A stretch of DNA of 64,000 nucleotides from Mobula hypostoma. Taxonomy: Eukaryota. Location of the stretch: contig NC_086107.1 of assembly GCF_963921235.1 (NCBI RefSeq), positions 111,974,001 to 112,038,000 of the forward strand, written 5' to 3'. The first letter of the stretch is position 1, and the number at the start of each line of letters is the position of its first letter. The translations under genes and the position numbers were made by a program. Under the pieces are notes generated by a model that was not told the origin of the DNA, made no database searches, and saw only the letters and a list, made by a program, of their open reading frames with translations. Positions 45,501-64,000 of this stretch are shown piece after piece.

Positions 45501-48500
45501 ATTTCCAGTTCGTCCCCTCCCCCCCACTACTTAGTTTAAGCACACCCGCGTTGCAGAGGCAAACCTGTGCCAGAATGCTGGTGCCCCGCTTATTAAGGTG
45601 CAACCCGTCCCTTTTGTACAATTCATCCTTACCCCGAAACATACCCCAGTGGTCCAAGAATGTAAATCCTTGATTCCTGCACCAGTTCCTCAGCCACACA
45701 TTCAGATCCATTATCTCCCTGTTCTTGACCACTCCAGCACGAGGAACTGGAAGCAAACCGGAGATAACCACCCTGGAAGTCCTGCTTTTCAGCCTTCTTC
45801 CGAGTTCTCTGAAGTCGCGCTGTAGAATGTCTTTCCTCTTCTTTCCCACGTCATTTGTGCGACATGCACCACCACTTCCGGATGTTCTCCTTCACCCTTG
45901 AGGATTCCTTGTAATCGGTCCGTGACGTCCTGGATCCTGGCACCAGTGAGGCAACACACCATCCTTAAATCCCGCCTGTTGCCGCAGAAACCCCTTTCTG
46001 TACCCCTCACTATGGAGTCCCCTACTACCACGGCTCTGCCTGACTTCTGTCTCCTTGGGTTTGCCTCAGCGCCAATTGTTGATTCACAGAGCCGTCCACC
46101 TCTCAGACTGGCAGTGTCTTCTGTCCCGACAGCTTCCAAGAGGGAGAACCTGTTTACGAGAGGCACATCTCCTGGGGTCTCCTGTATTTCAAGCATCCTT
46201 TCCTTGCTCATCGTCGTCCTCCTACTCTCTTCCTGTATCCTGGGTGTAACGACCTCACTGTAGGTCCTGTCCAGAAAACTCTCGTTGTCCCGGATTAACC
46301 TAACGTCATCCAGTTGCCTCTCCAGTGCTGCAACACGGTCCTTCAGAAGCTGAATCTGGACACATTTTCTGCAGGTGTGGGATCCAGAGGCACCATCAGT
46401 GTTCCAGACCTCCCACATCATGCACACAGCACACTGAATCAGCCTAGCGATCATCTCTTCTCCACTTCTCACCCTCTCCGACTGTGAGGGCAACATTTAT
46501 TACTCGTTTTTACTCTCCCATGAGAAGGTATCAAGGAAAAAGAAACTCGAGAATTAGTCATGAGGGTGTGGAATCGGGTCACACGTTTGTCAGATTAGAT
46601 AAGGCTGGCAGATTTTTTCCTTCCTTCCTTGTTTCATATCGGGGTGTCAGGATCCAAAGTGAGAGCTGATTTCGCTCGCTCTCCGTGATGGTCACTCCTC
46701 TCTCCATGGCGCTGAGGCTATGAAGACTCCCCTGTCTGCTGTGCTCTGTGCCCACTAACATGATGAGCTGGTAAGCGAGGTTTTGGGCCTACTCCAGGCT
46801 GCTCTGGGTTTGAACCTGAGGACTCAATTTGGTTCGGAATGCAAACAAGAGAAAATCTGCAGATACTGGAAATCCGAGCAACATAGACAAAATGCTGGAG
46901 GAATTTACCATTTCCCATCCCCTTGTCCCTCTATCATGTTATCTCTTTGCCCACCCATCTCCTCCCTTTGGTGTTCCTGCACCCACCCCTCGGCTTTCTT
47001 CTTTCTTCCATGGCCTTCTGTCTCTTTCACCAATAAACTTCCCAGCTCTTTGCTTCATCCCTCTCCCTCCAAGTTTCACCTATCACCTGGTGTGTCTCTC
47101 TCTCCCCTCCCCCCCCCCCAGCTTTCAGATCTTCTATCTCAGCCCGAAACGTCGACTGTACTTTTTCCCAGAGATGCTGCCTGGCCCGCTGAGTTCCTCC
47201 AGCGCTTTGTATGTGTTGCTTGGTTCGGAATGCTGTTGTCCGCTTGAAATGTTAGCATGGTTTGTGTCTTTTTCTTTCTCTTGTTCATCGGGTGTTGGTC
47301 TTTTATTTTTATTCTTTTTTTTCTTTAATTGGGTTCCTTTGGGTTTCTTTGAGAGCAAGCAAATCTCAAGGTTGTATACAATCTTTGATGATAACGTACT
47401 CTGAATATATATATCAATCAAAGTTCAAAGTACATTTGTTATCAAATTATACAACCTTGAGATTTGTCTGCTTACAAGCAGCCACAAAGCAGGAAACCCG
47501 CAAGAACCCAATTTTAAAAAAGACAACACCCAATGCGCAGAGAAAGAGAGGAAGAAAACACGAACCATGCAAACGATAAAAGCAATTAACAGCTTTCAAA
47601 ATGAAATTGAGTCCGTGAACCTGAACCCCGGCGAAGCCGGAATAGGCCCACAGATTCGGTCTCAGTTCGTCATATAGCGGGGCAAATCGCCATGAAGCTC
47701 GCAGTCACGAAGTACGTAGTAACCGGAGCAGTCTCACAGCCTCAGCGCCGAGGAGAGCAGTGTAAAACGTCGCAGAGCAGAACCGGCTAAATGTATAGTT
47801 CGATTAAGCATTCTTGTTCATTTAAGTAATTAATTACAGGTTATGAGTATAAATATGTGAATTGCATACCTCATCATGCTACCTCGTGATATGTGCACGC
47901 CTCACTTAAAGTAAACCTAAAGTTAGACCCGCATTTCAGACTCCTGTGTCTGTCTCTGAATTAGTTTAATGTTTTGGAATTACAGGCCATAGCTAGAGCA
48001 CCCAGAGGAAACAGTGCGTTGTCAGAGGAAGATGTGCGAACTTTACTCAGACAGCATCTGAGGTCAGGCTCAAGCAGGTCACTGGAGCTGAGAAGCAGCA
48101 GCTGCAACCGCTGTGCCACTCATAAAGGATTAGCATGACCCGATGGGAACTTGCAGTGAACTGGAAACCGGTCAGCAGCACAGATGCTAACTTTCCTTAA
48201 TTCCCTGTTCTTTAACTGTTTAAAAGTACCAACTTCAATCGAGTCAGAGTCATATATCACTACATCACAGAAACAGGCCCTTTGGCCCATCTAATCCAAG
48301 CCGAACTGTTGTTCTGCCTAATCCCATTGACGCCTCTACCTGGGCCATAGTCCTCTAATCCATGTTAGGATGTGAACTGTCATCTCTAGGTCTCAATTTC
48401 TCTTGCCCTCACACTCCCAGTTCAGCTCCAAGAATCAAGCATCCCAGGTGCTGGAGGTCTGAACTAAAACAGAAAGTGATGGAAATATTGAACAGACCAA

Positions 48501-51500
48501 GCAACTGCAGAGGGAGAAGGAGTGAATTTTTCTGGTCAAACGCATTTGATCAGACGAAGCCTTAGATAAGGCACTGGTCAGACCGCACTTGGAGTATTGT
48601 GAGCAGTTTTGGGCACCTTACCTAAAAAACGATGTACTGGCAATGGAGAGGGTCCAGAGGAGGTACATGAGAATAATCCCGGGAATGAAAGGGTTAATGT
48701 ATGAGGAGCATTTGATGGCTTTGGGCCTGTGCTTGCTGGAGTTAAGAAGAATGGGGGGGGGGGGTATCTCATTGAAAGCTATCGAATATTGAAAGGTAAA
48801 CAAGAGAAAATCTGCAGATGCTGAAAATCCAAGCAACACACACAAAATGCTGGAGGAACTCAGCAGGCCAGGCAGTGTCTGTGGAAAAGAGTACAGTCGA
48901 TGTTATGGGTCGAGACCCTTCATTAGGATCTGTTGAACGGTCTCGGCCTGAAACATCAGCTATACTCTTTTCCACAAATGCTGCCTGGCCTGCTGAGCTC
49001 CAGAATTTTGTGAAAATTGAAAGGCCTAGAGAGTGGAGCAATAATTTAAGACTCGTATCACGTAGAAGTTTGGAAAAACAAGAAATTAAATGTCCAACTA
49101 CAATTAGCCAGCATTGATGGAATCCGGTTGCCCTGATACCGTTTCTCCATGACTGCAATGTCCTGGTGAAACCTTTCACCATGCTTGTCACTGACTGCAC
49201 CAAGATTTGCAGGGAAGAAGTCTAAATGGGAGTGCAGAAAATGAATCTTTAGTGACATGTTGTATTTCATGGTATTGTGTGTTTGAAGCATGTTGTCAAC
49301 CAGCTGCACGTAGTTTGGTGCTCTGTAGTTGCCAAGAAAATTTTCAACAACATCCTTGAATGCCTTCCATGTGATTTTCACTGGTCCCACTAGAAGTTCC
49401 TCAAATTGCCTGTCATTGCTGACTTGTTTGATTTGTAGACCAATAAAAATGCCTTCCTTAATCATGATAATCTGTTACTCTGGGAAACATCTGTCTCAAA
49501 TATCAAAAACCTTAATGGAAGTTTATATCCTTTCTGAATCCTGTCCTGCCATGCAGCATCTGCCCTGCCTAAGCATGTCTGAACAAGATAGAAAACTTTT
49601 CAGCTTACATTGTACAACATTTTAATTTACTTGAATGAGGAATTGAAATAACAAAGAGATGATTTTTTTTTTAAAAAGGCATGCGATAGGAAAATTTTAG
49701 GATGATTTTCATGATCAGCAGTCCAAAATCCGAAAGATACACCCAAACGTTATTCAGGAAGCAAAACCTTTGTTATCCATTGTAATAGGGTTGAAATTCA
49801 AAGGAATATATTCGTTCCTTTATTAAGCAACGAGCAAAACAAACTTGAAGTGATAAAACTAATGAACTAAAACTAATGATATAAAAAATAAACAGGTTTA
49901 ACATAATAAACGTACTTCAGCTTTCTTCAATGTAATTGAACTCTTTTAAGCCACATTAAGCGTAATTAACAGGTCAACAAAAAATCTATCATACCCGGCG
50001 GTCTCTACCTCTAACTGTCTCTAACCAAACTCAGACTGAACTAAAAACAAAGCATGCAGAGGTAACCAACACCCTCTTCGCTTTTACCACACACCCCCAC
50101 CCATGTGACTATCTACCATTATGAACGTACAACGCAAAATACAATGTATATAGAAAACAGATGTGGCTCCTACACGGACAATTCATAAACTCATAGGACC
50201 TACCATCTGAAATGTTAATTCTTTCTCTTCTCTGGCACCATCCAGTGTCAGTAAGTTCCCATGTGTCGTTGCAAGCACAAAACATTAAATGGCGATAAGA
50301 TAGAGACAGCTGACAGCTAGAACAGCAGTACCTGGTTAGTTACTGCTCATTACGTCTTGCTGGCACTTAGGGAAGTAATGAAGTTCCTCCATCTCTGCCC
50401 ATGGCCGTATGCTATCACATATAGATAAAGAAGGATTCTGTAACAATCTGTTTTTGACCAGCCAGGGTTCTTAGCCCTGGAACACTCTTAGCCTGGCCTC
50501 TACCCTCTGACCTGTTTGGCATGGGCGACCCTACCAAGAGACAAAGCATAAAGCCCAGACTCCAGCCAACATGGTTCTCCAGGTCATTGGGGCACACAAG
50601 CTTCCAAATCACGATAGGGTCGTGGTCCTCTTAGAGGAGGAGTATCTGGTCACACCCCACAAAAAGCCAGCACATCTGCCCTCACCCCATCATCCCACCT
50701 TCATAACAGGGATAGGGTTCCCCCTTGTCTTCTCCTACCACCCCCACGAGTCTCCATAATGTCCACCATCTTCAACAGGATCCTATCACAAAGGCACATC
50801 TTTCCCTCCCCTGTCACCTCTCTGTTTTCCGAAGAGATTGCTCTTTGCATGATTTCCTCATCCCTTCCCACTGATCTCCCTCCTGGCAATTATTCCTGCA
50901 AGCGTAACGAGTGCTACACCTCCTCTCTTGCCGTTCAGTCCTTCTGGTTTAGGCAACACTTCACCTGCGAGTCTGTCGGGGACCTCTATTGCTCTCAGTG
51001 TGCCTTCCTCTGCAAAGGTGAGACCCAACACAGAATAGGGACTACCTCATCGGGCATCTTTTAATCTTAGGGAATCTTAACATCTTCCAGCTATCTCCTT
51101 CCAGTCTCATTCCCTCTCCATCACCTACTCTATTTCCCCCTCACCTGATTTCACCTATGACCTGCTATCTTGTAACCCTCTCACCCCCCGCCCTTTATTC
51201 TGGCTTCTTCCCCCTTCCTTTCCAATGATGAAGGATCTCAGCCCGGAACATCAGCTGTTTATTCCTCTTCATAGATGATAACTGACCTGCTGAGTTCCTC
51301 CAGTGTTTTGTGTGAGCTGCTCAAGATTTCCAGCATCTGCAAAATCTCTTGTGTTTTTGCCTGCTACAAGATCATATTGAGAGGAAACTATACCCATAAA
51401 CTTAGCCTCACACTTAGATGCCCAAAAGTAATGTATCAGCTCTGCTTTAGTGTCTTAGGATGAATGAATGGAGGCTTTACTGGGAGGTCTTTCGGTTTTA

Positions 51501-54500
51501 GTTGAGAAGACTCTACCAGACCCCATCTTTTTACTCCAACCCTTCTCCTCCCACCTCCAGCCAGGAGGGCATCTCACACCTCAGGATTTTCTTTTACTTC
51601 TGTTGGCTTCTCTTCAGGGTTCTCCTTCTGGTTCCTTGTAGGGTTACAATCGCAAAAAGGCATTCATTGCTACACAGGGACCCCTGCCGGATACAGTGGT
51701 AGACTTCTGGCAAATGATTTGGGAGCAGAAGTCAGAGGTCATTGTGATGCTGACCAAATGTGTGGAGCACAATCAGGTGAGTCCCTAGTTTTTATTTATT
51801 CTACGTTATTTGGAGATACATCGTGGAAAAAACCCTTCCAATCATTCAAGCTGTGCTGCCCAGCATCCCCAACAACCACCAATCTAACCCTAACTTAATC
51901 ATGGGTCAATTTACAATGACCAATTAACCTACCTGCTATGTCTTTGGACAGTGGGAGGTAACTGGAGCACCTGGAGGAAACATCATGAATTGCATGAGGA
52001 GGGCATACAGAGACTCCTTACAGAGGACATCAGAATTGAACTCACCACTCCGATGCCCATGCCATTAATAGCACTGTGCATCATCTACTCTTCAGTAAGG
52101 TCTTCTAATATACAGTAACAAACTACAACGAATTCACAGCAAATCAAATTATATGCACATTTATTATTTGCAAGGGAAGGTCTACCTCCATTAAGTCATT
52201 GGAAAGTAGCTTCAATCTTCTCGCTCAAAACAAACCATTTTTTTTTTACTTTTACAGAGACCATAATTCATCACTTTCATATCTTTGAGGTTGTTCCATT
52301 TCATAATGGCATTCCCTCCCCATTGGCATCTGTGGCATCAGTTCTTTAATCCATAGAAACGATAGAAAAACTACAGCACAGAAACAGGCCTTTTGGCCCT
52401 TCTTGGCTGTGCCGAACCATTTTCTGCCTAGTCCCACTGACCTGCACATGGACCATATCCCTGGTCCATGTGCAGGTCCATACACCTCCCATCCATGTAT
52501 CTGTCCAATTTATTCTTAATAGAAACCATAGACATCTTTAAGCTGTCGTGGGAGGGGGCACTTCTTCCCCCCTGCTCCCCCATGACAGCTGTGTCGTGTC
52601 TTTCTCTGTTATCAAAATACTCCCTGCTATAAACTCACCCCTACTATAAAACCCACAGACTTCCATTCAAATCAGGAGCCTCTTTGAGAGGGTGTGTGTA
52701 CGAAGAACATCTCCACAGCCCATTATGTCATAGTGTTCAGGGCAACAATGAAGGTCCTCCATCTCTGATGGTGTTCAGGGCTTCCTTCATCATGTCAGTA
52801 GCTCAGTTTTCACTACTATCAGTCATGCAAGTCCTGGGTGGAGACTCAGCAATACAATCACACTCAGATGTGAAAGGAATACCCATTGCTGTTTCCTTAA
52901 CAGTTTTTTGGACCAGTCAGAGTTGTTAACCCAGAGCTGAACCTCCGAACCTGGAGGACCAGTGGACCAGTCTTAGTCTGGCCTCTATCCTTTGACCTGT
53001 TTGACATGGGTGACCCTACCATGAGCCAAAGCATAAAGCCCTGACTCTAGCCAACATAGCTCTCCAGGTCACTGAGGCATACAAGCCTCCAAAGCAGGAA
53101 AAGACGTGGTCCTCTTGGAGGTTATAAATCTGTGGCAGTACATAATTCCAGAATTGAACCTACGTCCCCACAGCAGTATGTAGTAAACTGGTGATGCGTT
53201 AGCTGAACAGGTTGGGTAGCTTGTGTACAATTCTTGGCTTGATGGATCGAGCAGCCTGATTCTGCTGCTTTGCCTTATTAAACCATGAGCTTTCCAGATC
53301 TGTTTCACTTTTTTCATTTTGTTGTGGGAAATCAGGTTCATGGGTTCAGTGAGTGGGAACAGGAGAGACCCGTTACCAGTAAACACACACAAAATGCTGG
53401 AAAAGCTCAACAGGTCAGGCAGTATCTATGGAAAAGAGTAAACAGTCGACGTTCGGGTTGAGACCCTTCATCAGGGCTGAGAAGGAGGGGCGATGACGGT
53501 AGAATAAAAAAAGTGTGGGGAGGCAAAAGAGGCTAGCTGGAAGGTGATAAGTGAAGGCAAGTGGTTGGGAAAGGTCAAGGGCTGGAGAAGGAAGAATCTG
53601 ATAGGAGAGGAGAGTGGAAAATAGGAGAAAGATTTCCAGAAAGCAGGTTAACTATTTATTTACAAGACAAGACAGACACTAAACAGTTAGTAAACCCTTC
53701 AAGCAAACTCAGTTACAAATACTTATCTAAACTGAGTGTCCAAAGGATCAGGACAAAGCAAACGTGAAACATACACACAGTGTCAAATGTCTATCTAATG
53801 TGTGTACTCGGGCCCTTTGCACTGCAGCTCGCCTCCCTCCCCCCACTGTCTACCGTATCCATGGCAACCTAATCTAACTGCTCCACTATGACCCAAGAGG
53901 AAAAGAGAACGCGTGCTAGATCTAAACCCTAGCGGCTTTGTGACGTCATTAGTAAAGAAGCTAGTGGGAGGGGCTGCAATGCTTCTTACACGAGCCAATT
54001 CCTGCCTCCCACGGGGGAGTGGGTAAGTTAAGACACGTACTGCAACACATGCCCAATATTAATCTGTGATGACGCAAACATATAATATCAGAGAATTGGT
54101 ATATCGGACAACTGCTGATACCCAGTGTGGTCCAAACTCAAAGCAGCCATCAGGGGATATGCAGTGGGGATGCAACTCTTACTTTATATAATTTTGCATG
54201 TTATATTACCTATCCATACTTTAACCTCTAACTTCATATTTTATATTATTCTTTACTCTTTAAAATTGTTAAATGTTATTGCTTTTTTGTTGCATGTCGC
54301 ACCCCAACCAACACACCACAGAAATTCATAACTCATGTCATGGAAATAAAGTTGATCCTTGAAACTTGATTTACCTGCATCTCTCTACTTCACCAAAATC
54401 AGGGATGAGATATCATGTTCCTCTGAAGCTTTTCCTTCCCTTAGTTGCTTCAGTATCCAGCAAAATGGTGAGGGGCAGACTGAGGCAAATCTTTCCCATC

Positions 54501-57500
54501 CAGAGAACTTAATGTTGAATGGCATCTAGAACATGCCTGCTCAGAGTCTGGTGGTTGTCTTGTCGTGTCTAATGATGACAGGAGACCTGTGCGGAAAAGT
54601 TTTAGAAGTGGAAATGCCATTGCATTGGGACAGTTCCACTCCCTTGACCTCAGAAGTCCGGGTCCAGTCCCACCACCCAAAACATGCCCGCTTCACACTG
54701 TTACTGTCGGGAAGGATGTACAGAAACCTGAAGGCACACACTCAGTGATTCAGGAACAGCTTCCTCCTCCTCTGCCATCTGATTTTTAAATGGACATTGA
54801 ACCCACCTTACTACTTTTATATTTCTGCTTTTTCTTGCACTACTTATTTTAACTTAACTAATATAACTAATATATAACTAATGTAACTCAGTTTATTCTC
54901 TATTAAATTTATCATGTATTTCATTGTACTGCTGCCGTAAAGTTAACAAATTTCACAACATTTGTCAGTGATATTAAACTTGATTCTAATTGTGAAGAGT
55001 AGTTAGGAGACGTTTGACCCTGGAATCTTCCAACTTGGAGGCCAGAGTGAAACTACTTGGTTGCGTTTAGTACCGTGGCTCACTGGGAAGAGGATTGCAA
55101 AGCCAGCTCCTAGTCCGATTAGTCCCCTAATCATTCTTTTAACTGTTTTGTTTCCAGGACAAATGCGAAGAATACTGGCCAAAGGATAACGACACTGACA
55201 TCTACGGAGACTTCACAGTGAATGTCATTTCACTAAGCCGCTGCCCTACTTGGACAATCAGGGAACTTAATATCAAAAAGGTGAAGAGTTATTTACAAAG
55301 AGACCACCATGGAGAACTAGCTGATTGCTGACTGAGACTTTATAAGGCATTCCAAACAGGAGAAAGTCTACAGATGCAGGAGGTCAAAGTAACACGCACA
55401 AAAAGCTAGAGGAACTCGGCAAACCTGGCAGCATCTATGGAAAAGAGTAAACAGTTGACATTTTGGGCTGAGACCCTTCATCAGGACTGGACTTTTTTCC
55501 AGCCCTGATGAAGGGTCTCGGTCTGAAACGTCAACTGTTTACTCTTTTCCATAGATGCTGCCTGGCCTGCTGAGTTCCTCCAGCATTTTCTGTGTGTTAC
55601 TTTAAGGCATTGGTCAGACTGCACTTGGAGTATTGTGAGCTACTTTGAGCCCCTTACCTAAGGAAGGAACGTGCTGGAGAGGAACCAAAGGAGGTTCAGG
55701 GGAATGATCTTGGAAATGAAAAGGAATCATTCTGGGAATGAAGAGCATTTGATGGGCCTGGACCTGCAATTACTGGAATTTAGAATGAGGGGGGATCTCA
55801 TTGAAACCTATCGGATATTGAAAGGCCTAGAAAGAGTGGACATGGACAAGATGTTCCTTCAGTGGGGGAATCTAGGACCAGAGGGCACAGCCTCAGTACA
55901 GAAGGTCGTCCCTTTGGAACGGAGATGAGGAAGAACTGCTTCAGCCAGAGGTTAGTGAATCTGTGGAATCCATTGCTACAGGTGGCCGTGAAGGCCAAGT
56001 CACTTAAAGTGGGGGTTAATAGGTTCTTGATTAGTCAGGGTGTCAAAGGTTATGGGAAGAAGGCAGGAGAATAGGGTTAAAAGAGATAATAAATTAGCCA
56101 TGATGGAATGGCAGAGCCATTATGGATGGGCTGAATGGCCTAATTCTGCTCCTATGTCACAGAGTCACAAGAGTGATAGAAAAGTACATCAAACGAACAG
56201 GCCCTTCGTCACGTCTAGTCCATGCCAAACCATTTAACCTGCCTACTCCCATCAACCTGCGCCAGGACCATAGCCCTCCATATCCCTACAATTCAGGTAC
56301 CTATCCAAACTTCTCTGAAGCATTGAAATCGAGCTCGCGTGGACCATTTGCACTGGCAGCTCATTCTGCACTCTCATGACTCTCTGAGTGAAGAAGTTTC
56401 CCTTTGCGCTCCCCCTAAAGGTTTCACCACTCTTAACCCACGAGCTCGAGTTGTAGTCCCATCCAAGCTCAGTTGAAAAAGCCTGCTTGTGTTTAACCTA
56501 TCTATACCCGTCATAATTTTGGATACCTCTATTAAATCTCATCTCCATCTTAGTAACATAGAAACATAGAAAATAGGTGCAGGAGTAGGCCATTCGGTCC
56601 TTCGAGCCTGCACCGCCATTTATTATGATCATGGCTGATCATCCAACTCAGAACCCCGCCCCAGCCTTCCCTCCATACCCCCTGACCCCCGTAGCCACAA
56701 GGGCCATATCTAACTCCCTCTTAAATATAGCCAATGAACTGGTCTCAACTGTTTCCTGTGGCAGAGAATTCCACAGATTCACCACTCTCTGTGTGAAGAA
56801 GTTTTTCCTCACCTCGGTCCTAAAAGGTTTCCCCTTTATCCTCAAACTGTGACCCCTCGTTCTGGACTTCCCCAACATCGGGGATTTTATACGTTTCAAT
56901 CAGATCCCCCCTCAATCTTCTAAATTCCAACAAGTACAAGCCCAGTTCATCCAGTCTTTCTTCATATGAAAGTCCTGCCATCCCAGAAATCAATCTGGTG
57001 AACCTTCTTTGTACTCCCTCTATGGCAAGGATGTCTTTCCTCAGATTAGGGGACCAAAACTGCACACAATACTCCAGGTGTGGTCTCACCAAGGCCTTGT
57101 ACAACTGCAGTAGTACCTCCCTGCTCCTGTACTCGAATCCTCTCGCTATAAATGCCAGCATACCATTCGCCTTTTTCACCGCCTGCTGTACCTGCATGCC
57201 CACTTTCAATGACTGGTGTATAATGACACCCAGGTCTCGTTGCACCTCCCCTTTTCCTAATCGGCCACCATTCAGATAACAATCTGTTTTCCTATTTTTG
57301 CCACCAAAGTCGATAACTTCACATTTATCCACATTAAATTGCATCTGCCATGAATTTGCCCACTCACTCAACCTATCCAAGTCACTCTGCATCTTCTTAG
57401 CATCCTCCTCACAGCTAACACTGCCACCCAGCTTCGTGTCATCCGCAAACTTGGAGATGCTGCATTTAATTCCCTCATCCAAGTCATTAATATATATTGT

Positions 57501-60500
57501 AAACAACTGGGGTCCCAGCACTGAGCCTTGCGGTACCCCACTAGTCACCGCCTGCCATTCTGAAAAGGTCCCGTTTATTCCCACTCTTTGCTTCCTGTCT
57601 GCTAACCAATTCTCTATCCACATCAATACCTTACCCCCAATACCGTGTGCTTTAAGTTTGCACACTAATCTCCTGTGTGGGACCTTGTCAAAAGCCTTTT
57701 GAAAATCCAAATTTACCACATCCACTGGATCTCCCCTATCCACTCTACTAGTTACATCCTCTTCTATGTTCCAAGGAATAAAGTCCTAACCTATTCGATC
57801 TTTCCTTATAGCTCAGGTCCTCCAGACAGAGCAACATCTTTGTAAATTTCCTCTATTCCCTTTGAACATTACTTACATCTTTCCTGAGGGTAGGTAACCA
57901 ACCAAAACTGCACACATTACCCCAAATTAGACCTCACCAATGTCTATACAACTTCAACATAACATCCAGTCTCCTGTGCTCAGTACTTTGATTTATGAAG
58001 ACCAATGTGCCAAATGCTTTCTCTATGACCCTAACTACCTCAGACGCCACTTTCAGTTAATTATGGGCCCGTATTCCCAGATCCCTTTGTTCTACCACAC
58101 TCCTCAGTGCCCCACCGCTCACTGTGTAAGGCCTACCCTGGTTGGTCCTACTGAAGTGCAGCATCTCCCACATGTCTGCATTAAATTCTGTCTGCATTTT
58201 TCAGCCTTTTTGCCTGCCGGTCCATATCCCGCTGCAAGCCATGATAGCCTTCTTCGCTGTCAGTACAGCCTCAGACTTGGTGTCATCCACAGATTTGCTG
58301 ATCCAGTTAACCACATTATCATCCAGATAGTCATATGATCACAACTATCAATTCAATTGAAAATAACCCAGATGTAACCACAGGAAAACTAACCAAGATC
58401 CTCCCAAACATTATACATTTGTCTCAAATTGTTCAGATATCTACCATCATGGAGGAGATGCAAGAGCCTGAAGACACACACTCTATGATTCAGGAACAGC
58501 TTCTTCCCCTCCGCCATCAGATTTCTGAATACTTTATACATTATTGTCGCCAAACAATTGATACTAGAACGTACAATCATCACAGTGATATTTGATTCCG
58601 TGCTTCCCGCTCCCTGGATTACAAATATTAAATATTAAAAATATTGAAAATAGTAAAAATTAGTAAATATTAAAAATTTAAATTATAAATCATACATAAA
58701 AAATAGAAAAATGGAAAGTAAGGTAGTGTAAAAAAACTGAGAGACAGGTCCAGATATTTGGAGGGTACGGCCCAGATCCGGGTCAGGATCCGTTTAGCAG
58801 TCTTATCACAGTTGGAAAGAAGCTGTTTCCAAATCTGGCCGTACGAGTCTTCAAGCTCCTGAGCCTTCTCCCGGAGGAAAGAGGGATGAAAGGTGTGTTG
58901 GTTGAGTGGGTCGTGTCTTTGATTATCCTGGCAGCACTGCTCCGACAGCGTGCGGTGTAAAGTGAGTCCACGGACGGAAGGTTGGTTTGTGTGATGTGCT
59001 GCGCCGTGTTCACGATCTTCTGCAGCTTCTTTTGGTCTTGTACAGGACAACTTCCATACCAGGTTGTGATGCACCCTAGAAGAATGCTTTCTACGGTGCA
59101 TCTATAAAAATTAGTGAAGGTTTTAGGGGACAGGCCAAATTTCTTTAGTTTTCTCAGGAAGTAAAGGCGATGGTGGGCATTCTTGGCAGTGGACTCTGCT
59201 TGGTTGGACCAAGTCAGGTCATTTGTGATATTGACCCCGAGGAACTTTAAGCTTTTGACCTGTTCCACTTGCGCACCACCAATGTAAATTGGGTCGTGCG
59301 GTCTGCTACTCCTTCTGAAGTCAACAACTTATTCCTTCATCTTGCTGACGTTGAGGGATAGGTTATTTTCTTCGCACCATGCCACCAGGTTCTTAATTTC
59401 CTCTCTGTACTCAAACAGAGAGGAAATTAAGAACATTGAACCCATGAATATTTCCTCAGTATTTTCCCTCTCTCTTTGTAACTTACAGTTACAATTTTAT
59501 AGTTTTTTCTATTATGAATTGCATTGTACTGTTGCCACAAAGCAACAAATTCCATGACATGTGCTGATGATATTAAACCTGATTCTAAATAGGATCAGAA
59601 TCAGTATCAGGTTTAACATCACTGGTATATGTTAAATTTGCTGTCTTTGCGGCAGCAGTACAATGAAATGCATAATAAAAGAAAATGTGAATTACACTTA
59701 TGTATATATCCTGGAGGAACTCAGCAGGCCAGGCAGCATCTATGGAAATGAATAAACAGTCGACGTTTCAGGCCAAGATTCTTCATCAGGACAGGAAAGG
59801 AAGAGAAGAAGTCAGAGTAAGAAGCTGAGGGGAGGGGAGGATGAAGTACAAGATGGCAGGTGATAGGTGAAACCAGGAGAGAGGGAGGGAATGAAGTAAA
59901 GAGCTGGGAAGTTGATTGGTGAAAGAGATAAAGGGCTGGAGAAGGGGGAATCTGATAGGAGAGGACAGACCATGGAAGAAAAGGAAGGGGGGAGCAATGC
60001 AATACACAATAATAGAGGAAAAGAACTGTGAATTAAAGTAAATATATAATAGTTAAATTAATTAAGTAGTGCAAAAATAGAAATAAAAATAGTGAGGTAG
60101 TGTTCATGAGTTCAATGTCCATTCAGAAATTGGATAGCAGAGAGGAAGAAGCTGTTACTGAATTGTTGAGTGTATGTCTTCAGGCTCCTGTACCTCCTTC
60201 CTGATGGTAGCAATAAGAACAAGGTTTGACCTGCGATGGGGGTCCTTAATGTTGGATGCTGCCTTTTTGATGCATCACTACTTGAACTGTCCTGGATACT
60301 ACAGAGGCTAGTGCCCATGATGGAGCTGACTAAGTAGACAACTCTGAGTAGACAACAGACAACTCTGTAGCTTATTTCGATCCTATGCAATGCCCCCCTC
60401 CCCTATACCAGACAGTGATACAGTCAGTTAGAATGCTTTCTATGGTACATCTGTAAAAATTTGTGAGTGTCTTTGGTGACATACCAAATCTCCTTAAATT

Positions 60501-63478
60501 CCTAATGAAGCCTAGCTGCTGTTGTGCCTTATTTTTCTGATTCTGATTCTGATATTATTTGTATATACATGAATCATTTCCTTAAGGAGCTTGTTTCAAT
60601 TACTTCTCATTTACACACTGCAATATGATTTCTATGGATCTGTTTTGAATTTATCCCAGCACTCCTTCTATCTGCCATCAATTATCCATCAATTGTTCCA
60701 AAGCTCTCACTGCCCACACCTAATGATGCCTTTCTTGAATGATTTGGCTAAAAGTCCATAGCCAACATTGCTTAAGCAAATTAGCTGGTCATTATCACAA
60801 GCAGGAGAAAATCTGCAGATGCTGGAAATCCAGAACAACACACAAAATTCTGGAGGAACTCAGCAGGTCAGGCAGCACTTGTGGAAAAGAGTAAACAATT
60901 GACGTTTCACAACGAGACGCTTTATCAGGACTGGAAAGGAAGGGGGAAGGAGTCAGAATAAGGTGGGGGCAGGGGAGGAAGAAATACAAAGTGGCAGGTG
61001 CGAGGTGAAGCAGGGGGAGGGGTTGAAGGAGCTGGGTTGAAAGGTTCAATTTAATGCCAGAGAAATGTATACAATATACATCCTGAAATCCTGAAGTTGA
61101 TTAGTAAAATACAACCTGTCCATCACATCCCTCTAATGCTCCCCCTTCCTTTTCTTCCATGGTCTGTCCTCTCCTATCAGATTCCCCCTTCTCCAGCCCT
61201 TTATCTCTTTCACCAATCAACTTTCCAGCTCTTTACTTCACCCCCTCCCCGTTTCCTAGTTTCACCTATCACCTTCCATCTTGTACTTCTTCGTCCCCTC
61301 CCCCCACCTTCTTACTCTGACTTCTCCCCTTCCTTTCCAGTCCTGACGAAGAATCTTGGCCTGAAATGTCGACTGTTTATTCACTTCCATAGATGCTGCC
61401 TGGCCTGCTGCCTCCCTCCAGCATTTTGTGTGTGGTACTTTGGATTTCCAGCATCTGCAGACTTTCTTGTTTTTCTCTTTCGCCAGATATTTAGTTCCTT
61501 AGTTGGTCATTGCCTGTTTTATTGTTCCTGCATTTTACTTCCCACTTGTGGTGATTGGTTGTCCACTGTACCCGACAATGACAGTTTTTTGAAACCGGTG
61601 CAGGAGTTTTTGAAGTGGAAAAGCCACTGCACTGGGGCAGTTCTGAACTGCAGGCGTCTGGGTCCTGTGGTACGATCGGTCATCACAAACTGGAGTCTTC
61701 TGTGGTTGCAGTGGATGACTATGACTTCTCCTGTGCCTTGTCATGCCCTTCGCTCTCCATGGAGCATTGCAAACCCAGCTTCCTGGCTGCTGAATCTCAG
61801 TGTTACTCTCATCTGCCCAGTCCTCTAGAGCTGAGTGTTCATGCTAGGTCAGGCATGTCCCTTTCTTACCAGGGTATAAGGCCTGCCGGCCACCCTCACC
61901 CAGTTTAGCCCACCTGTTGAAGCGGTGTACCAGGGTGTCAGCAGCTACTTGGAGCCACAGGGGACCAAAGAGCAGTGATCTGCCCCAGAATGGACACCAC
62001 GAGCCCTTTCTCTGTTGATAAAGATGCAGATAACACCACTGCTGTTGGTAAAATCTCAGGTGGTGATGAGGAGGCATACAGCAGTGGGATAGATCAGCTG
62101 GATGACAGGTGTCACCACAACAACCTCCTACTCAGTATCAGCAAGACTGTGGACTTCAGCAAGTGGAAGTCAGGAGAGCACACAGTAGTTGTCATTGAGG
62201 GGTCAGCAGAGGAAAGTGTGCACAGCTCTAAGTTCCTGGGTGTCAACATCTCTGAGGATCTCTCCTGGACCAAACACATTGAAGATATCACAAGGAGAGC
62301 ATGCAAGCAGCTCAACTTCCTTAGGGTTTGTTAACAAAGACTCGTGCAAATTTCTATAGACGTATGGTGCAGATCATTCTTATTGTCTGGTGTGGAAGCC
62401 CCAGTGCACAGCATCACAAGAGGCTGTAGAGTGTTGTAGATTCAGCCAGTTCCATCAGGGCACAACCCTCCCCTTCATCGAGGCCATCTTCAAGAGAGGC
62501 TGCCTCAAGAAGGCACCATCCATCATTACTACAGGAAGGATGTAGATACTATAGAGAGAGCGCAGAGATTTACAAGGATGTTGCCTGGATTGGGGAGCAT
62601 GCCTTATGAGAATAGGCTGAGTGAACTTTGCCTTTTCTCCTTGAAGTGACGGAGGATGAGTGGTGACCTGACAGAGGCATATAAGATGATAAGAGGCATT
62701 TTGATCATGTGGATAGCCAGATGCTTTTTCCCAGGGCTGAAATGGTTAACACGAGGGGTCATAGTTTTAGGTGCTTGGAGGTAGGAACAAGGGGGATGTT
62801 AGAGCGGTGGGTGCATGGAATGCACTGCCAGCAACAGTGGTAGAGGCGGATACAACAGGGTCTTTTAAGAGTCTCTTAGGTAGGTACATGGAGCTTAGAA
62901 AAATAGAGGGCTATGCAGTTAGGTAATTTTAGGCAGTTTCTATAGTAGGTTACATGGTCGGCACAATATTGTGGGCTGAAGGGCCTGTAATGTGCTGTAG
63001 ATTTCTATGATTCTATGATTAAAGACCCTCACTACCCAGGATATGCCCTCTTCCTGTTACTACCATCCGGGAGGAAGTACAGGAGCATGAAGACACACAC
63101 TCAATAATTCTGGTACAGCTTCATCTCTTCCACCATCAGGTTTCTGATGGGCTCATGAACCCTCATTATTCCACATTATTTTTTTAAATTTCAAGTTTCT
63201 TGTTTGCTTTCATGCTGCACTGCTGTCGCAGAGTGATGAGCTTCAAGTCATCTACCACAGTGACAATGAGCCTGACTGTGATTCTGAGTCTGTGACTGAT
63301 GCTTTGCCTTCTTCGCTTAGGCTGGATCCTCAGAGTCACGTAGAGTCACCCAGTTCCAATTCACTTGCTGGTCAAACCAGAGTATTCCTAAGACCACAGA
63401 GAACCTGCTGCAGTTCCACGGGATGATCCGGAATTACCTCAACAAAGGTCAGGGAGGAGTTCCTGTCGTACATTGTAG
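3172..63478 (+). CDS. PTPRJ-like: R3-subtype receptor-type protein tyrosine phosphatase gene (PTPRJ/PTPRH-like), multi-exon, partial at both ends
   Basis: Chain of AG/GT-bounded, phase-compatible exons encoding signal-like peptide, 5 FN3 domains, TM helix, wedge region and PTP motifs ([32 protein letters not shown]). FN3-only ectodomain is R3 architecture; TKCVE/KCEEYWP resemble PTPRJ. Orthology not established. Confidence 0.88.
4570..6230. mobile_element. CR1 ORF1/ORF2-junction fragment (minus) with a nested CR1 3' fragment (plus, about 5312-6100)
   Basis: [19 protein letters not shown] on minus; [11 protein letters not shown]...[13 protein letters not shown]...FFTQRVV on plus. Confidence 0.75.
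6550..9545 (+). mobile_element. CR1 LINE, 5'-truncated in the ORF1 region but with intact ORF2; ends in TTTCTATG-like tail
   Basis: 932-aa uninterrupted ORF plus 3' UTR cctactcctgcacctattttctatgtttctat; nested inside a Rex/Babar remnant. Confidence 0.95.
6657..9455 (+). CDS. CR1 ORF2: APE endonuclease plus reverse transcriptase
   Basis: VGITETW, MGDFN, SDH (APE); [46 protein letters not shown] (RT). Confidence 0.95.
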   Translation: MCVNARSIRNKVDELKVQIVINDYDIVGITETWLQGDQGWELNVQGYSIFRRDRHEGRGDGVALLVKGEINAIERKDVSREDVESIWVELRNTKGQKTLVGVVYRPPNSSSEVGDGIKQEIRNVCNKGTAVIMGDFNLHVDWVNQIGKGAEEEDFLECMRDGFLNQHVEEPTREQAILDWVLSNEEGLISDLVVRGPLGKSDHNMVKFFIKMESDIVNSETKVLNLKRGNFEGMRRELAKIDWQMTLKGLTVDMQWQAFKGCMDELQQLFIPVWQKNKSRKVVHPWLTREIRDSINSKEEAYKLARESGSPEDWEKFRVQQRRTKGLIRKGKKDYERKLAGNIKTDCKSFYRYVKRKRLVKTNVGPLQTETGELIMGSKDMANQLNNYFGSVFTKEDINNLPEIAGDRGSSEMEELSEIHVSREVVLGKLKGLKADKFPGPDGLHPRVLKEVGQEIVDAIVIIFQNSLDSGLVPEDWRVANVTPLFKKGGREKPGNYRPVSLTSVVGKLLESVIKDVITAHLESGEMIGQSQHGFVKGRSCLTNLIEFFEDVTSRVDRGEPVDVVYLDFQKAFDKVPHRRLVCKLKAHGIGGKVLVWVENWLADRKQRVGINGTFSEWQAVISGVPQGSVLGPQLFTIYINDLDEGIKCSISKFADDTKLGGSVNCEEDAKRMQGDLDRLGEWANSWQMQFNVDKCEVIHFGGKNRKTDYYLNGGRLGKGEVQRDLGVIIHQSLKVGMQVQQAVKKANGMLAFIARGFEYRSREVLLQLYKALVRPHLEYCVQFWSPILRKDILAIEGVQRRFTRLIPGMAGLSYEERLDELGLYSLEFRRLRGYLIETYKILKGLDRLDAGRLFPMLGKSRTRGHSLRIEGKPFRTEIRKNFFTQRVVNLWNSLPQETVEASSLAIFKRELDLAPVATGVRGYGGKAGAGF
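9546..10210 (-). mobile_element. Rex1/Babar-like LINE fragment (its 3' end continues at about 6420-6545, split by the CR1)
   Basis: [27 protein letters not shown]...[10 protein letters not shown]. Confidence 0.7.
11068..11422 (+). mobile_element. L1/Tx1-like 3' fragment with 17-bp TSD
   Basis: TSD gaaatgaataaacagtc at 11051-11067 and 11423-11439; encodes LERIRY...[17 protein letters not shown] and A-rich end. Confidence 0.65.
11435..11472 (-). ncRNA. Minimal hammerhead ribozyme motif (PLE-associated)
   Basis: Minus strand CAGUC-CUGAAGA-AGGGUCUUGGCCU-GAAAC-GUU-GACUG. Confidence 0.68.
12173..12200 (+). CDS. Micro-exon EVICSQSST, phase 0 to 1, probable end of signal peptide
   Basis: tttcttcatcaacag acceptor, strong A|gtaagt donor, 28 nt, joins in frame to the first FN3 exon. 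Confidence 0.65.
13508..13760 (+). mobile_element. V-SINE (HE1-like); other copies at about 25620-25895 (-), 40715-40925 (+) and 51805-52080 (-)
   Basis: B-box-like ggttcaattccc and V-domain ttttcctccgggtgctccagtttcctcc. Confidence 0.7.
13951..14229 (+). CDS. FN3 exon 1 (279 nt, phase 1-1)
   Basis: PSPVTGL...SLIIEWKKP...YTYRITV...[15 protein letters not shown]; many N-x-S/T sequons; A|gtaagt donor. Confidence 0.92.
14238..17120 (-). mobile_element. Degenerate CR1 LINE (ORF1 3' end plus fragmented ORF2)
   Basis: [15 protein letters not shown]...[13 protein letters not shown]...[22 protein letters not shown]. Confidence 0.9.
19244..19522 (+). CDS. FN3 exon 2 (279 nt, phase 1-1)
   Basis: ctcttaacag acceptor, gtaagt donor; SLTIEWIKP...[12 protein letters not shown]. 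Confidence 0.93.
19735..19940 (-). mobile_element. tRNA-derived SINE with GAA-rich tail (co-duplicated copy at about 21710-21915)
   Basis: Minus strand starts gccagtggggtagtgacatcc...ggctcaaat (A/B-box-like) and ends agaacaagaagaa. Confidence 0.55.
20663..20700 (+). ncRNA. Minimal hammerhead ribozyme motif, sense to the host gene
   Basis: CAGUC-CUGAAGA-AGGGUCUUGGCCC-GAAAU-GUC-GACUG; perfect stem I. Confidence 0.72.
21216..21494 (+). CDS. FN3 exon 3 (279 nt, phase 1-1)
   Basis: ctcttaacag acceptor, gtaagt donor; SLTIQWTKP...[12 protein letters not shown]. Confidence 0.93.
22961..23239 (+). CDS. FN3 exon 4 (279 nt, phase 1-1)
   Basis: ctcttaacag acceptor, G|gtaagt donor; SLTIVWTKP...[12 protein letters not shown]. 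Confidence 0.93.
24319..24591 (+). CDS. Membrane-proximal FN3 exon 5 (273 nt, phase 1-1)
   Basis: ttttttag acceptor, C|gtgagt donor; [10 protein letters not shown]...VEWNEPKG...[17 protein letters not shown]...CWT. Confidence 0.92.
24632..25345 (-). mobile_element. CR1 3' fragment
   Basis: [11 protein letters not shown]...[14 protein letters not shown]. Confidence 0.8.
25913..29190 (-). mobile_element. CR1 LINE (second subfamily): ORF1 C-terminus and broken ORF2
   Basis: [47 protein letters not shown]1 DWLHLN. Confidence 0.92.
29395..29740 (+). mobile_element. Tc1/mariner-derived non-autonomous fragment
   Basis: Same family as 32193-38760; cactcagtggcc...ttattagg terminal motif. Confidence 0.55.
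30295..30645. repeat. 66-bp minisatellite (about 5 units) with embedded (GA)n expansions
   Basis: Unit starts ccttcctc at 30295, 30361, 30427, 30578, 30632; pure GA run at about 30520-30560. Confidence 0.9.
30940..31027 (+). CDS. Transmembrane exon ([30 protein letters not shown]), phase 1 to 2
   Basis: tatttacag acceptor, AG|gtaaga donor; hydrophobic helix followed by basic stop-transfer residues. Confidence 0.9.
31330..31995 (+). mobile_element. CR1 3' fragment
   Basis: EYCEQF...[14 protein letters not shown]...RGDLIETY. Confidence 0.8.
32317..37692 (+). mobile_element. Near full-length Nimb/I-clade LINE: ORF1 (zinc knuckles) and ORF2 (APE-RT-RNase H-Cys), degenerate
   Basis: [14 protein letters not shown] and [66 protein letters not shown] (RNase H); (GAA)n tail; TSD ttcagt at 32311-32316 and 37693-37698. 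Confidence 0.88.
35738..35963. mobile_element. Fold-back Penelope-derived mini-element inside the Nimb RT
   Basis: About 87-bp inverted arms; 13-bp TSD taataaatggggt at 35725-35737 and 35964-35976. Confidence 0.85.
38974..39027 (+). CDS. Juxtamembrane exon ([18 protein letters not shown]), phase 2-2
   Basis: tttttatcattccag acceptor, AA|gtacgt donor, 54 nt, in frame between TM and wedge exons. Confidence 0.72.
40170..40242 (+). CDS. Wedge-region exon ([24 protein letters not shown]), phase 2 to 0
   Basis: ttttgctccccag acceptor, CGG|gtgtgt donor; resembles the PIxVxxF...GFxxEY segment that precedes RPTP catalytic domains. Confidence 0.85.
41030..41746 (-). mobile_element. RTE-clade LINE remnant, internally deleted
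   Basis: [19 protein letters not shown]-rich 3' tail near 41030. Confidence 0.6.
41918..42166. mobile_element. Solo LTR (249 bp) inserted in a CR1 3' fragment
   Basis: TGTTA...TAACA termini; 5-bp TSD tatag at 41913-41917 and 42167-42171; diverged inverted copy at about 47791-47985. Confidence 0.75.
42457..46493 (-). mobile_element. Near full-length CR1 LINE: ORF1 (CxxC zinc finger plus SGNH esterase) and ORF2, frameshifted
   Basis: CAVC...[23 protein letters not shown] motifs; (CTATTGT)n tail; possible TSD cattta. Confidence 0.93.
46843..47219. mobile_element. Penelope-derived insert with inverted ends
   Basis: TSD ttggttcggaatgc at 46829-46842 and 47220-47233. Confidence 0.8.
48797..49015. 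mobile_element. Fold-back Penelope-derived mini-element in a CR1 fragment
   Basis: Inverted arms; TSD attgaaagg at 48788-48796 and 49016-49024. Confidence 0.78.
49035..49782 (-). mobile_element. Chapaev (CMC superfamily)-like DNA transposon, internally deleted
   Basis: Transposase C-terminal signature [43 protein letters not shown]; family assignment from recalled motif, not from a search. Confidence 0.62.
50660..51355 (+). mobile_element. Degraded Penelope-like element fragment (GIY-YIG region plus pLTR)
   Basis: gatagggttccccttgtc...; [11 protein letters not shown]; homologous to 1302-2300. Confidence 0.7.
51642..51776 (+). CDS. PTP domain exon ([45 protein letters not shown]), 135 nt, phase 0-0
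   Basis: Classical PTP motifs 4-6; ccttgtag acceptor, CAG|gtgagt donor. Confidence 0.96.
55158..55280 (+). CDS. PTP domain exon ([41 protein letters not shown]), phase 0-0
   Basis: KCxxYWP motif 7; tttccag acceptor, AAG|gtgaag donor. Confidence 0.95.
55352..55602. mobile_element. Fold-back Penelope-derived mini-element carrying two opposed hammerhead motifs
   Basis: TSD taaggcatt at 55343-55351 and 55603-55611, inside a CR1 3' fragment (about 55333-56155). Confidence 0.8.
55500..55537 (+). ncRNA. Hammerhead motif, partly degenerate (opposite-strand partner at 55452-55489)
   Basis: CAGCC-CUGAUGA-AGGGUCUCGGUCU-GAAAC-GUC-AACUG. Confidence 0.5.
56555..57761 (-). mobile_element. 5'-truncated CR1 of the same young subfamily as 6550-9545, nested in an older CR1 fragment
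   Basis: 307-aa ORF almost identical to the C-terminus of the 932-aa ORF; short internal deletion near 56880. Confidence 0.93.
58540..59412 (-). mobile_element. Rex1/Babar-like LINE 3' fragment
   Basis: [14 protein letters not shown]...[11 protein letters not shown]...[10 protein letters not shown]...SGRRLRS...[10 protein letters not shown]. Confidence 0.82.
59711..61470. mobile_element. Cluster of Penelope pLTR fragments (59711-59999 -, 60796-61040 -, 61137-61470 +) with Rex fragments between
   Basis: Family motifs and hammerhead-like cores. Confidence 0.7.
61338..61375 (+). ncRNA. Hammerhead motif with weakened stem II
   Basis: CAGUC-CUGACGA-AGAAUCUUGGCCU-GAAAU-GUC-GACUG. Confidence 0.5.
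61990..63290 (+). mobile_element. Rex1/Babar remnant with a nested CR1 3' fragment (about 62530-63020)
   Basis: [18 protein letters not shown]1 tail atttctatgattctatg. Confidence 0.65.
63321..63478 (+). CDS. PTP domain exon with WPD-loop position and start of the catalytic motif ([13 protein letters not shown]...VPVVHC), phase 0 to 2
   Basis: cttcgcttag acceptor, TGT AG|gtaagc donor splitting the HCSAG motif at its usual intron position. Confidence 0.94.
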
Positions 63479-64000
63479 GTAAGCATCTCCTTTGTTCAGT
63501 CTTTACGGACTTCAATTCTCAGTTAAGGGTATGTCTTAAAAGGCCCATCAAGAGTCTTACTACTGCTCTGTTATGAGCTACACTTCCTTTTCTTCCAGCC
63601 TTTGCTCTGCTGACTCTTCATTTATAGAACATAGAATACTACAGCACAGTGCAGGCCATTCAGCCCACAATGTTGTCCAACCTTATAATCTAATCTAAGA
63701 TCAATCCAGCTCTTCCATATTTATATCATCCATCTCCCTGTCTAAGAGATTTTTAAATGTCTCTAATGTATCTGTCTCTATGGCCACCTCTGGCAGGGCG
63801 TCCCACACTCTCCCCACCCTCTGTTTAAAAAAAATCTCACCTCTGACATCCCCTATACGTTTCTCCAATCATCTTAAAATTACGCCCACCCCCCTTCTGC
63901 TTCAGCCATTTCCACTCTGGGGGAAAATGTATCTGGCTACCCATTCAACCTATGCCTCTTATCACCTTGTACACCTCTGTCCAGTCACTTCCTTCACTCC

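Follow-up and report, generated by a model that had tools for sequence, protein, structure and literature searches.

Receptor-type members of the protein tyrosine phosphatase (PTP) family that belong to the R3 class, namely PTPRH (SAP-1), PTPRB, PTPRJ, PTPRO and PTPRQ, combine FN3 repeats with one transmembrane (TM) helix, one PTP domain and C-terminal tyrosine motifs (PMC5336234). According to the main text of that survey, in which the word "shark" does not occur, the WPD Asp is present in all vertebrate R3 members analysed except PTPRQ, which carries WPE (PMC5336234). Here we describe an R3-type gene of the devil ray Mobula hypostoma, designated copy B, which lies in a window of 64,000 nucleotides (assembly GCF_963921235.1, contig NC_086107.1, positions 111,974,001 to 112,038,000, forward strand). 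An intact tandem copy, designated copy A, is situated directly upstream. Copy B shares the R3 plan, and differs from the R3 members in having no WPD Asp, a P-loop reading HCSSGSGR and Leu in place of Gln266. On balance, copy B is best read as a tandem R3 duplicate without its general-acid Asp and other active-site residues, which probably persists next to its intact twin as a surface receptor devoid of enzyme activity.

HD-PTP (PTPN23) and IA-2/IA-2beta (PTPRN, PTPRN2) are ancient single genes with other architectures, whereas copy B is a lineage-limited tandem duplicate adjoining an intact sister. The likeness lies in the active site, where the catalytic Cys is kept and the Ala at Cys+2 is replaced (by Ser in HD-PTP); HD-PTP also has an altered WPD loop, as copy B does (PMC2661844, PMC2638020). 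In PTPRU, also a receptor PTP, the WPD loop and the PTP loop are likewise altered, and it has been proposed to compete with an active paralogue for partners (10.1101/805119). However, PTPRU is of the R2B type with two PTP domains, reads WPE and GSRQ, and recruits substrates via D2, while copy B has no D2. Invertebrate R3-like proteins from Ciona and acorn worm (WSV, WPQ and WPI) share the R3 architecture and a non-acidic residue at the WPD position, but they lie near PTPRQ and have no predicted tail tyrosine sites (PMC5336234), whereas copy B arose in the ray PTPRH-like clade and keeps its tail tyrosines. By analogy, copy B may function like HD-PTP, IA-2 or PTPRU, and it is a member of none of them.

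Predicted-dead classical PTPs are already known, but among the vertebrate R3 members of the survey PTPRQ alone departs from the WPD Asp (PMC5336234). A literature search for this gene, including PTPRH in rays or sharks, its duplication and positive selection on it, found no paper among those listed; its coverage was thin for subscription journals. If the reading given above is true, the two copies, a fixed active/dead pair whose ectodomains nearly match, would offer a natural experiment on R3 receptor function in the absence of catalysis. It would also trace a pseudoenzyme origin in which active-site loss came first and was followed by partial loss of the fold in one species. Were copy B simply in decay in devil rays, the significance would be modest.

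The WPD loop of copy B

The sequence-only reading had noted that WSNQSIP replaces WPDHGVP while the catalytic Cys is kept, and the bases confirmed this within a cleanly spliced exon. Positions 63369-63389 (+) read TGG TCA AAC CAG AGT ATT CCT, which gives WSNQSIP where WPDHGVP is expected, and the His-Cys codons CAT TGT stand at 63471-63476 (+). The 52-aa peptide of the exon matched positions 129-176 of the Pfam Y_phosphatase profile (E 7.8e-07) and is contained unchanged in a RefSeq protein of M. hypostoma annotated as receptor-type tyrosine-protein phosphatase H-like. At the same loop copy A has TGG CCA GAT CAC GGC GTT CCT, so five codons differ. WSNQSIP is also present in the M. birostris B protein, and all 11/11 sampled words of the exon were found in five sequencing runs, four of which are possibly the source of this DNA. 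Given these three observations, a base-call or assembly error at the motif is very unlikely and was rejected.

Another ordinary cause would be the inactive D2 domain of a receptor with two tandem PTP domains. The lone 52-aa exon scores best on LAR/PTPRS D2 domains, and the PTP domain of copy A lies ~85 kb upstream on the same strand. However, copy B has signal peptide, FN3 and TM exons of its own between the two PTP domains, the RefSeq models are separate single-domain proteins, and the altered motif is common to four species. The D2 candidate was thus rejected as well, and an ordinary cause of either kind is hardly credible. The active-site change is real, conserved and more extensive than first described; the intact tandem twin and the homogenised ectodomains had escaped the sequence-only reading.

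Other active-site changes and their known effects

The catalytic Cys is kept in the WPD-loop exon. Downstream of that exon, where the rest of HCSAGxGR and the Q-loop had been expected, the P-loop Arg and the Gln262 equivalent were found to be retained. The remainder departed from expectation: the P-loop reads HCSSGSGR, with Ala>Ser at Cys+2 and Val>Ser at Cys+4, and the Gln266 equivalent in the Q-loop is Leu. Within the WPD loop itself, Asp>Asn is accompanied by His>Gln and Gly>Ser. The His>Gln change and the loss of Gly are shared with the stingrays, and Pro>Ser and Val>Ile occur only in Mobula. Set against an active classical PTP, the WPD Asp is Asn in 8/8 B records, and the KNRY loop is lacking in M. 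hypostoma (in the assembly and in the three RefSeq isoforms) and present in the B proteins of the other three species.

It is well established that Asn cannot act as a general acid. In PTP1B, the D181A mutation takes five orders of magnitude off the turnover number (kcat), and Asp-loop mutants trap substrate or product (PMC10267100); D181E costs about three orders of magnitude in kcat (PMC2638020). No paper on an Asp>Asn general-acid mutant of a phosphatase (D181N) was found in the literature search, and the effect expected of Asn specifically is therefore drawn from chemistry and from the data on Ala and Glu. The other positions have described effects too. HD-PTP is inactive owing to Ser at Cys+2, its S1394A mutant regains activity, and in an HD-PTP model this Ser gives poor phosphotyrosine (pTyr) contacts (PMC2661844). 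Gln262 and Gln266 coordinate a water molecule linked to loop closure (PMC2638020), and the PD[F/H]G motif serves as a switch of the WPD loop in simulations (PMC10336961). Hence the earlier suggestion of a pseudophosphatase has become stronger, as Asp>Asn is joined by the P-loop, Q-loop and His>Gln changes in four species. With no acid in the WPD loop, Ser at Cys+2 and no Gln266 equivalent, copy B very probably has no meaningful pTyr phosphatase activity.

The residues of copy B equivalent to PTP1B Phe182, Ala217 and Ile219, which we take to line the pTyr ring, are Gln, Ser and Ser. These positions bear on the idea that copy B is a natural substrate trap, which would bind pTyr proteins without turnover and shield them from copy A in the manner of PTP1B D181A. 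The trapping by Asp-loop mutants (PMC10267100) is in its favour, and so is the retention in M. birostris, Hemitrygon and Hypanus of the Cys and the P-loop Arg, together with the Gln262 equivalent and the KNRY loop. However, trapping through the usual pocket is impossible in the M. hypostoma assembly, where the KNRY exon is absent, and in the other species both the altered ring residues and the poor contacts of a Cys+2 Ser (PMC2661844) speak against binding. The trap proposed by the sequence-only reading is accordingly unlikely in M. hypostoma and disfavoured elsewhere, and as a whole we consider it improbable.

Alternatively, copy B might act on another substrate such as a phosphoinositide, as PTPRQ does, or be a slow enzyme of single turnover with a persisting phosphocysteine. 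All eight B records retain Cys and Arg, the pocket has gained polar residues that are fixed in four species, and PTPRQ is an example of a substrate shift that a WPD change can bring (PMC5336234). Yet PTPRQ keeps an acid (WPE) and copy B, reading WSN or WPN, has none, so the PTPRQ analogy drawn earlier finds no support. In addition, HD-PTP, PTPD1 and PTPD2 have no lipid activity (PMC2638020, PMC2661844), inactive D2 domains often retain the Cys (10.1101/805119), and the M. hypostoma form is without 56 residues of the domain. An altered activity is thus very improbable.

Species distribution and phylogeny

B proteins were found in four species, namely M. hypostoma, M. birostris, Hemitrygon akajei and Hypanus sabinus. 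A-type or single-copy proteins were found in the same four as well as in sawfish, electric ray, three skates and three sharks. All of the myliobatiform rays found (4/4) have both copies, and each of these species that yielded A also yielded an open B. Among 45 records scanned, eight were B records with W[SP]N, HCSSGSGR and MVQSEAL, 34 others had WPDHGVP, and three sawfish isoforms gave no motif match. Copy A itself is canonical (WPDHGVP, HCSAGVGR, MVQTESQY), and the A copies together with all outgroup records of readable motif show WPDHGVP and MVQTExQ.

As for the conservation of WSN, the triplet as such is not conserved, because the two stingrays have WPN, while Asp>Asn is common to the four species. 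Judging from the stingray WPN, Asp>Asn is evidently the old change and Pro>Ser the Mobula-specific one. In a tree of 18 proteins, from which extra isoform records and a teleost match were excluded, B formed one clade (100/100), made up of four species, and within the myliobatiforms A was its sister group (99/97), with stem lengths of 0.31 for B and 0.12 for A.

In the skate Rhinoraja longicauda, six isoform records of one PTPRH-like gene read HSSAGVGR (Cys>Ser) with an intact WPD, and a close sister record reads HCSAG. This HSSAG gene hints at a second, independent dead twin, a hint made of one base in one assembly.

Ectodomain similarity between copies A and B

The ectodomain exons of the two copies are much more alike than their catalytic exons. 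In this genome the membrane-proximal FN3 exon, which is single in each gene, showed an A-B synonymous divergence (dS) of 0.098, whereas four PTP exons gave 0.49 (Fisher p 1.7e-4). Three further B repeats gave a dS of 0.08-0.14 to the closest A repeats, a range biased low by picking the best pairs among the eight A exons compared, and the unused repeat gave 0.28. The nonsynonymous divergence (dN) of the FN3 A-B pairs was at least as large as dS. A similar picture was obtained for the 60 nt upstream of the exons, which are 87-95% alike between A and B for FN3 and 66-79% for PTP exons.

Among 57 FN3 repeats the species label clustered, with 12 changes versus 33.3 after shuffling (0/200 as low), and the A/B label did not, with 10 changes versus 11.7 (79/500 as low). 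In Hypanus, two of the B repeats match A repeats exactly and another two match them at 95-96%, which brings them nearer to A than to the B repeats of other species; this comparison was made on protein only and may reflect an assembly artefact. The dS contrast and the FN3 tree thus agree in showing homogenised neighbouring ectodomains, as expected of paired receptors. Since the ectodomain exons are far closer (dS ~0.1) than the catalytic exons (0.49), gene conversion between the A and B ectodomains is suggested. Within the copy A ectodomain (contig ~111.879-111.918 Mb) we also observed a tandem array with a period of 2328 bp, each unit containing one full FN3 exon and a half-repeat remnant. Copy A has many more FN3 repeats than copy B, and several of them are identical in protein, which points to recent expansion.

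Siglec-11/16 and CEACAM1/3 offer a parallel, as their ectodomains are alike (by gene conversion in Siglec-11/16) and their cytoplasmic parts have diverged (PMC5701461, PMC5112662). Those pairs oppose inhibitory and activating motifs, whereas the contrast between A and B would be that of an active and a dead phosphatase, with a shared ligand and opposed output being hypothetical. It is possible, though only tentatively so, that A and B form a paired-receptor system of this kind. One ligand or microbe would then meet both a phosphatase and a scaffold with a pTyr tail through ectodomains kept alike by conversion, and the Cys>Ser copy of Rhinoraja would apparently be the same design reached independently.

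The least certain steps of the proposed mechanism concern what copy B does at the surface. FN3 repeats held like those of A by gene conversion might bring it to the same extracellular partners or membrane niche without dephosphorylation. Its tyrosine-rich tail might stay phosphorylated and recruit SH2 proteins, and copy B might in this way dampen or oppose copy A, signalling or competing through the tail. R3 tails reportedly are phosphorylated at YxN and bind Src-family kinases (PMC5336234). In mammals, PTPRH occurs chiefly in the intestine and modulates cytokine output by the epithelium (PMC9900141), which makes a role of copy B at the gut surface plausible.

Constraint and apparent exon loss in copy B

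The changes in copy B are concentrated in the catalytic loops. At 124 PTP sites that are invariant in 12 non-B sequences, all four B proteins have changed 7/21 within the WPD, P and Q loops versus 8/103 elsewhere (one-sided Fisher p 0.004, a value weakened by loop borders that were chosen after viewing the alignment). The cytoplasmic region of B carries 77 changes and 0 stops across the four species, where ~5 would be expected under neutrality (P 0.005-0.01); this contrast is tempered by the use of annotated proteins, which are open by definition. In this genome, A-vs-B dN/dS was 0.51 over 183 codons (bootstrap 0.33-0.79), early burst included.

Between the two stingrays, the B domains are identical at 252/259 positions versus 242/259 for A. 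Between Mobula and stingrays, identity is 82-83% for B and 89-90% for A. Correspondingly, the stingray branch in the 18-protein tree is 0.034 for B and 0.058 for A, and the Mobula branch 0.13 and 0.036. From these branch lengths, constraint on copy B looks to have been kept in stingrays and loosened in devil rays; signs of selection on B are positive for the clade and weak for Mobula. We consider it likely that copy B has been retained by selection for a non-catalytic job in the clade as a whole, and for M. hypostoma the case appears evenly balanced.

The KNRY and DYINA exons (56 aa) of copy B were found neither in positions 40001-52000 nor in the 464 kb around the window. A genome-wide search, in which only the best candidates were scored, returned only copy A's own KNRY/DYINA exons and distant PTPs. 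All 3/3 M. hypostoma RefSeq B isoforms skip the two exons, which are kept in the B genes of M. birostris, Hemitrygon and Hypanus, and one isoform skips a third exon too. The exons flanking the gap are both of phase 0, and thus the frame holds. The copy B frame stays open, free of the frame-disrupting lesions of a simple pseudogene, and its cytoplasmic splice sites are intact. In AlphaFold models (18-19 sequences), the confidence of the PTP core was moderate both with the 56 residues and without them (mean pLDDT 74.0/74.2), and the two forms could not be told apart. In devil rays, the constraint on the PTP fold may have loosened and ended in the in-frame loss of these exons seen in this assembly.

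Several points weigh against a retained enzyme-dead receptor. The site in the PTP loop of PTPRK at which Thr was introduced is, as we take it, Cys+4, the position of the Val>Ser change in copy B. That Thr left activity intact (10.1101/805119), and PTPN23 has been treated as a phosphatase acting on FYN (PMC5710140); sequence-based "dead" calls are therefore disputable. Tandem genes may undergo conversion passively, so that it does not by itself imply shared ligands, and the expression evidence for copy B consists of RefSeq models alone. The absence of two core PTP exons from this assembly and the longer Mobula branch of B also fit decay.

Hence copy B might instead be heading to a pseudogene, at least in devil rays, with ectodomain likeness due to passive conversion and an open frame that is partly luck. 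The skipping of the two PTP-core exons in every isoform, with a third skipped in one, agrees with this view, as do the Mobula B branch of ~3.6x the Mobula A branch and the three residues that all B proteins have lost from their juxtamembrane region. On the other side stand the intact cytoplasmic splice sites and the in-frame loss, the better conservation of B than of A in stingrays, an open B in all four myliobatiform species yielding A, and changes that favour the catalytic loops over the fold. We thus regard a gene on its way to a pseudogene as rather unlikely, and an enzyme-dead receptor kept beside copy A as the probable state of copy B.

Gene structure and C-terminal tail

The exons were mapped with the M. 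birostris protein over the window plus 200 kb on each side (Table 1). Copy B starts ~360 nt before the window and ends ~14 kb past it. It comprises a signal peptide, five FN3 exons (four in use and one open but unused), an exon for the TM helix, a pair of juxtamembrane exons and a single PTP domain.

Table 1. Features of copy B along the window; coordinates past 64000 continue the window numbering beyond its end.
Feature	Position	Strand	Remarks
Exon 2, short, end of signal peptide	12173-12200	+	exon 1 with ATG ~360 nt before window start
Extra open FN3 exon, AAG acceptor	13951-14229	+	unused in the three RefSeq isoforms
Three FN3 exons	19244-19522, 21216-21494, 22961-23239	+	dS 0.08-0.14 to closest copy A repeats
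Membrane-proximal FN3 exon	24319-24591	+	dS 0.098 to single copy A counterpart
Transmembrane exon	30940-31027	+	
Juxtamembrane exon 1	38974-39027	+	
Juxtamembrane exon 2, start of PTP domain	40170-40242	+	phase-0 donor
Intron without two PTP exons	40243-51641	+	56 aa (KNRY loop, DxxRVxL, DYINA) present in copy A and in B of other species
PTP exon	51642-51776	+	skipped in RefSeq isoform X2
PTP exon, KCEEYWP motif	55158-55280	+	
WPD-loop exon	63321-63478	+	158 nt, AG/GT splice ends intact; terminates in HC and AG of a split Ser codon
Start of intron leaving the window	63479-64000	+	two exons beyond
Exon past the window	68107-68242 (continued numbering)	+	completes HCSSGSGR, with Ala>Ser and Val>Ser but the Arg retained, and MVQSE
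Last exon, past the window	77760-77897 (continued numbering; contig 112051760-112051897)	+	Leu at Gln266 equivalent, three-tyrosine tail, stop

The R3 architecture was recognised in the four FN3 repeats and the TM helix (by exon map, Pfam labels and model), and in the single cytoplasmic PTP domain followed by a 30-aa tail and a stop. Foldseek searches with the models confirmed the FN3 and R3 PTP folds and nothing more. In the tail, the first C-terminal YxN site reads YPN or YQN in 4/4 B proteins, and the second site reads YES instead of YEN. Copy B thus keeps YxN and has YES and YQxV sites in addition, all of them putative phosphorylation sites.

The tail of Mobula B ends in S-E-Y-Q-V-V-V with a hydrophobic C-terminus, and that of stingrays in N-E-Y-Q-A-V-I. 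The Mobula ending presumably matches a consensus like that of the immunoreceptor tyrosine-based inhibitory motif. A reading of the tail as the activating counterpart (ITAM) is not claimed, as YESI and YQVV are five residues apart, below the consensus spacing.

The first FN3 repeat of M. birostris B differs from that of M. hypostoma, which indicates turnover of FN3 content between the two Mobula species. By eye, the intron DNA at 62000-63140, ahead of the WPD-loop exon, resembles decayed repeats of the long interspersed nuclear element (LINE) type. Read depth was very high over 38900-58899, from which the copy B introns appear to be repeat-rich.

Gene name and chromosomal neighbourhood

RefSeq names these proteins PTPRH-like. 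Matches to single-domain PDB entries gave E values of 7e-89 for PTPRJ, 5e-83 for PTPRB and 4e-75 for PTPRH. The PTPRH label is thus not proven by sequence, and the PDB scores favour PTPRJ. Genes of the DNAAF3, troponin, PPP6R and TMEM86 families lie on the same contig arm, 2.5-30 Mb away, and these families are the neighbours of PTPRH in human. This long-range synteny fits the PTPRH name.

Another R3-type WPD exon at 56.86 Mb on the same contig may belong to PTPRJ. Each of the PPP6R, troponin and TMEM86 families is represented in two separate parts of the contig (36-57 Mb and 81-112 Mb), which suggests a fusion of two paralogous ancestral chromosomes.

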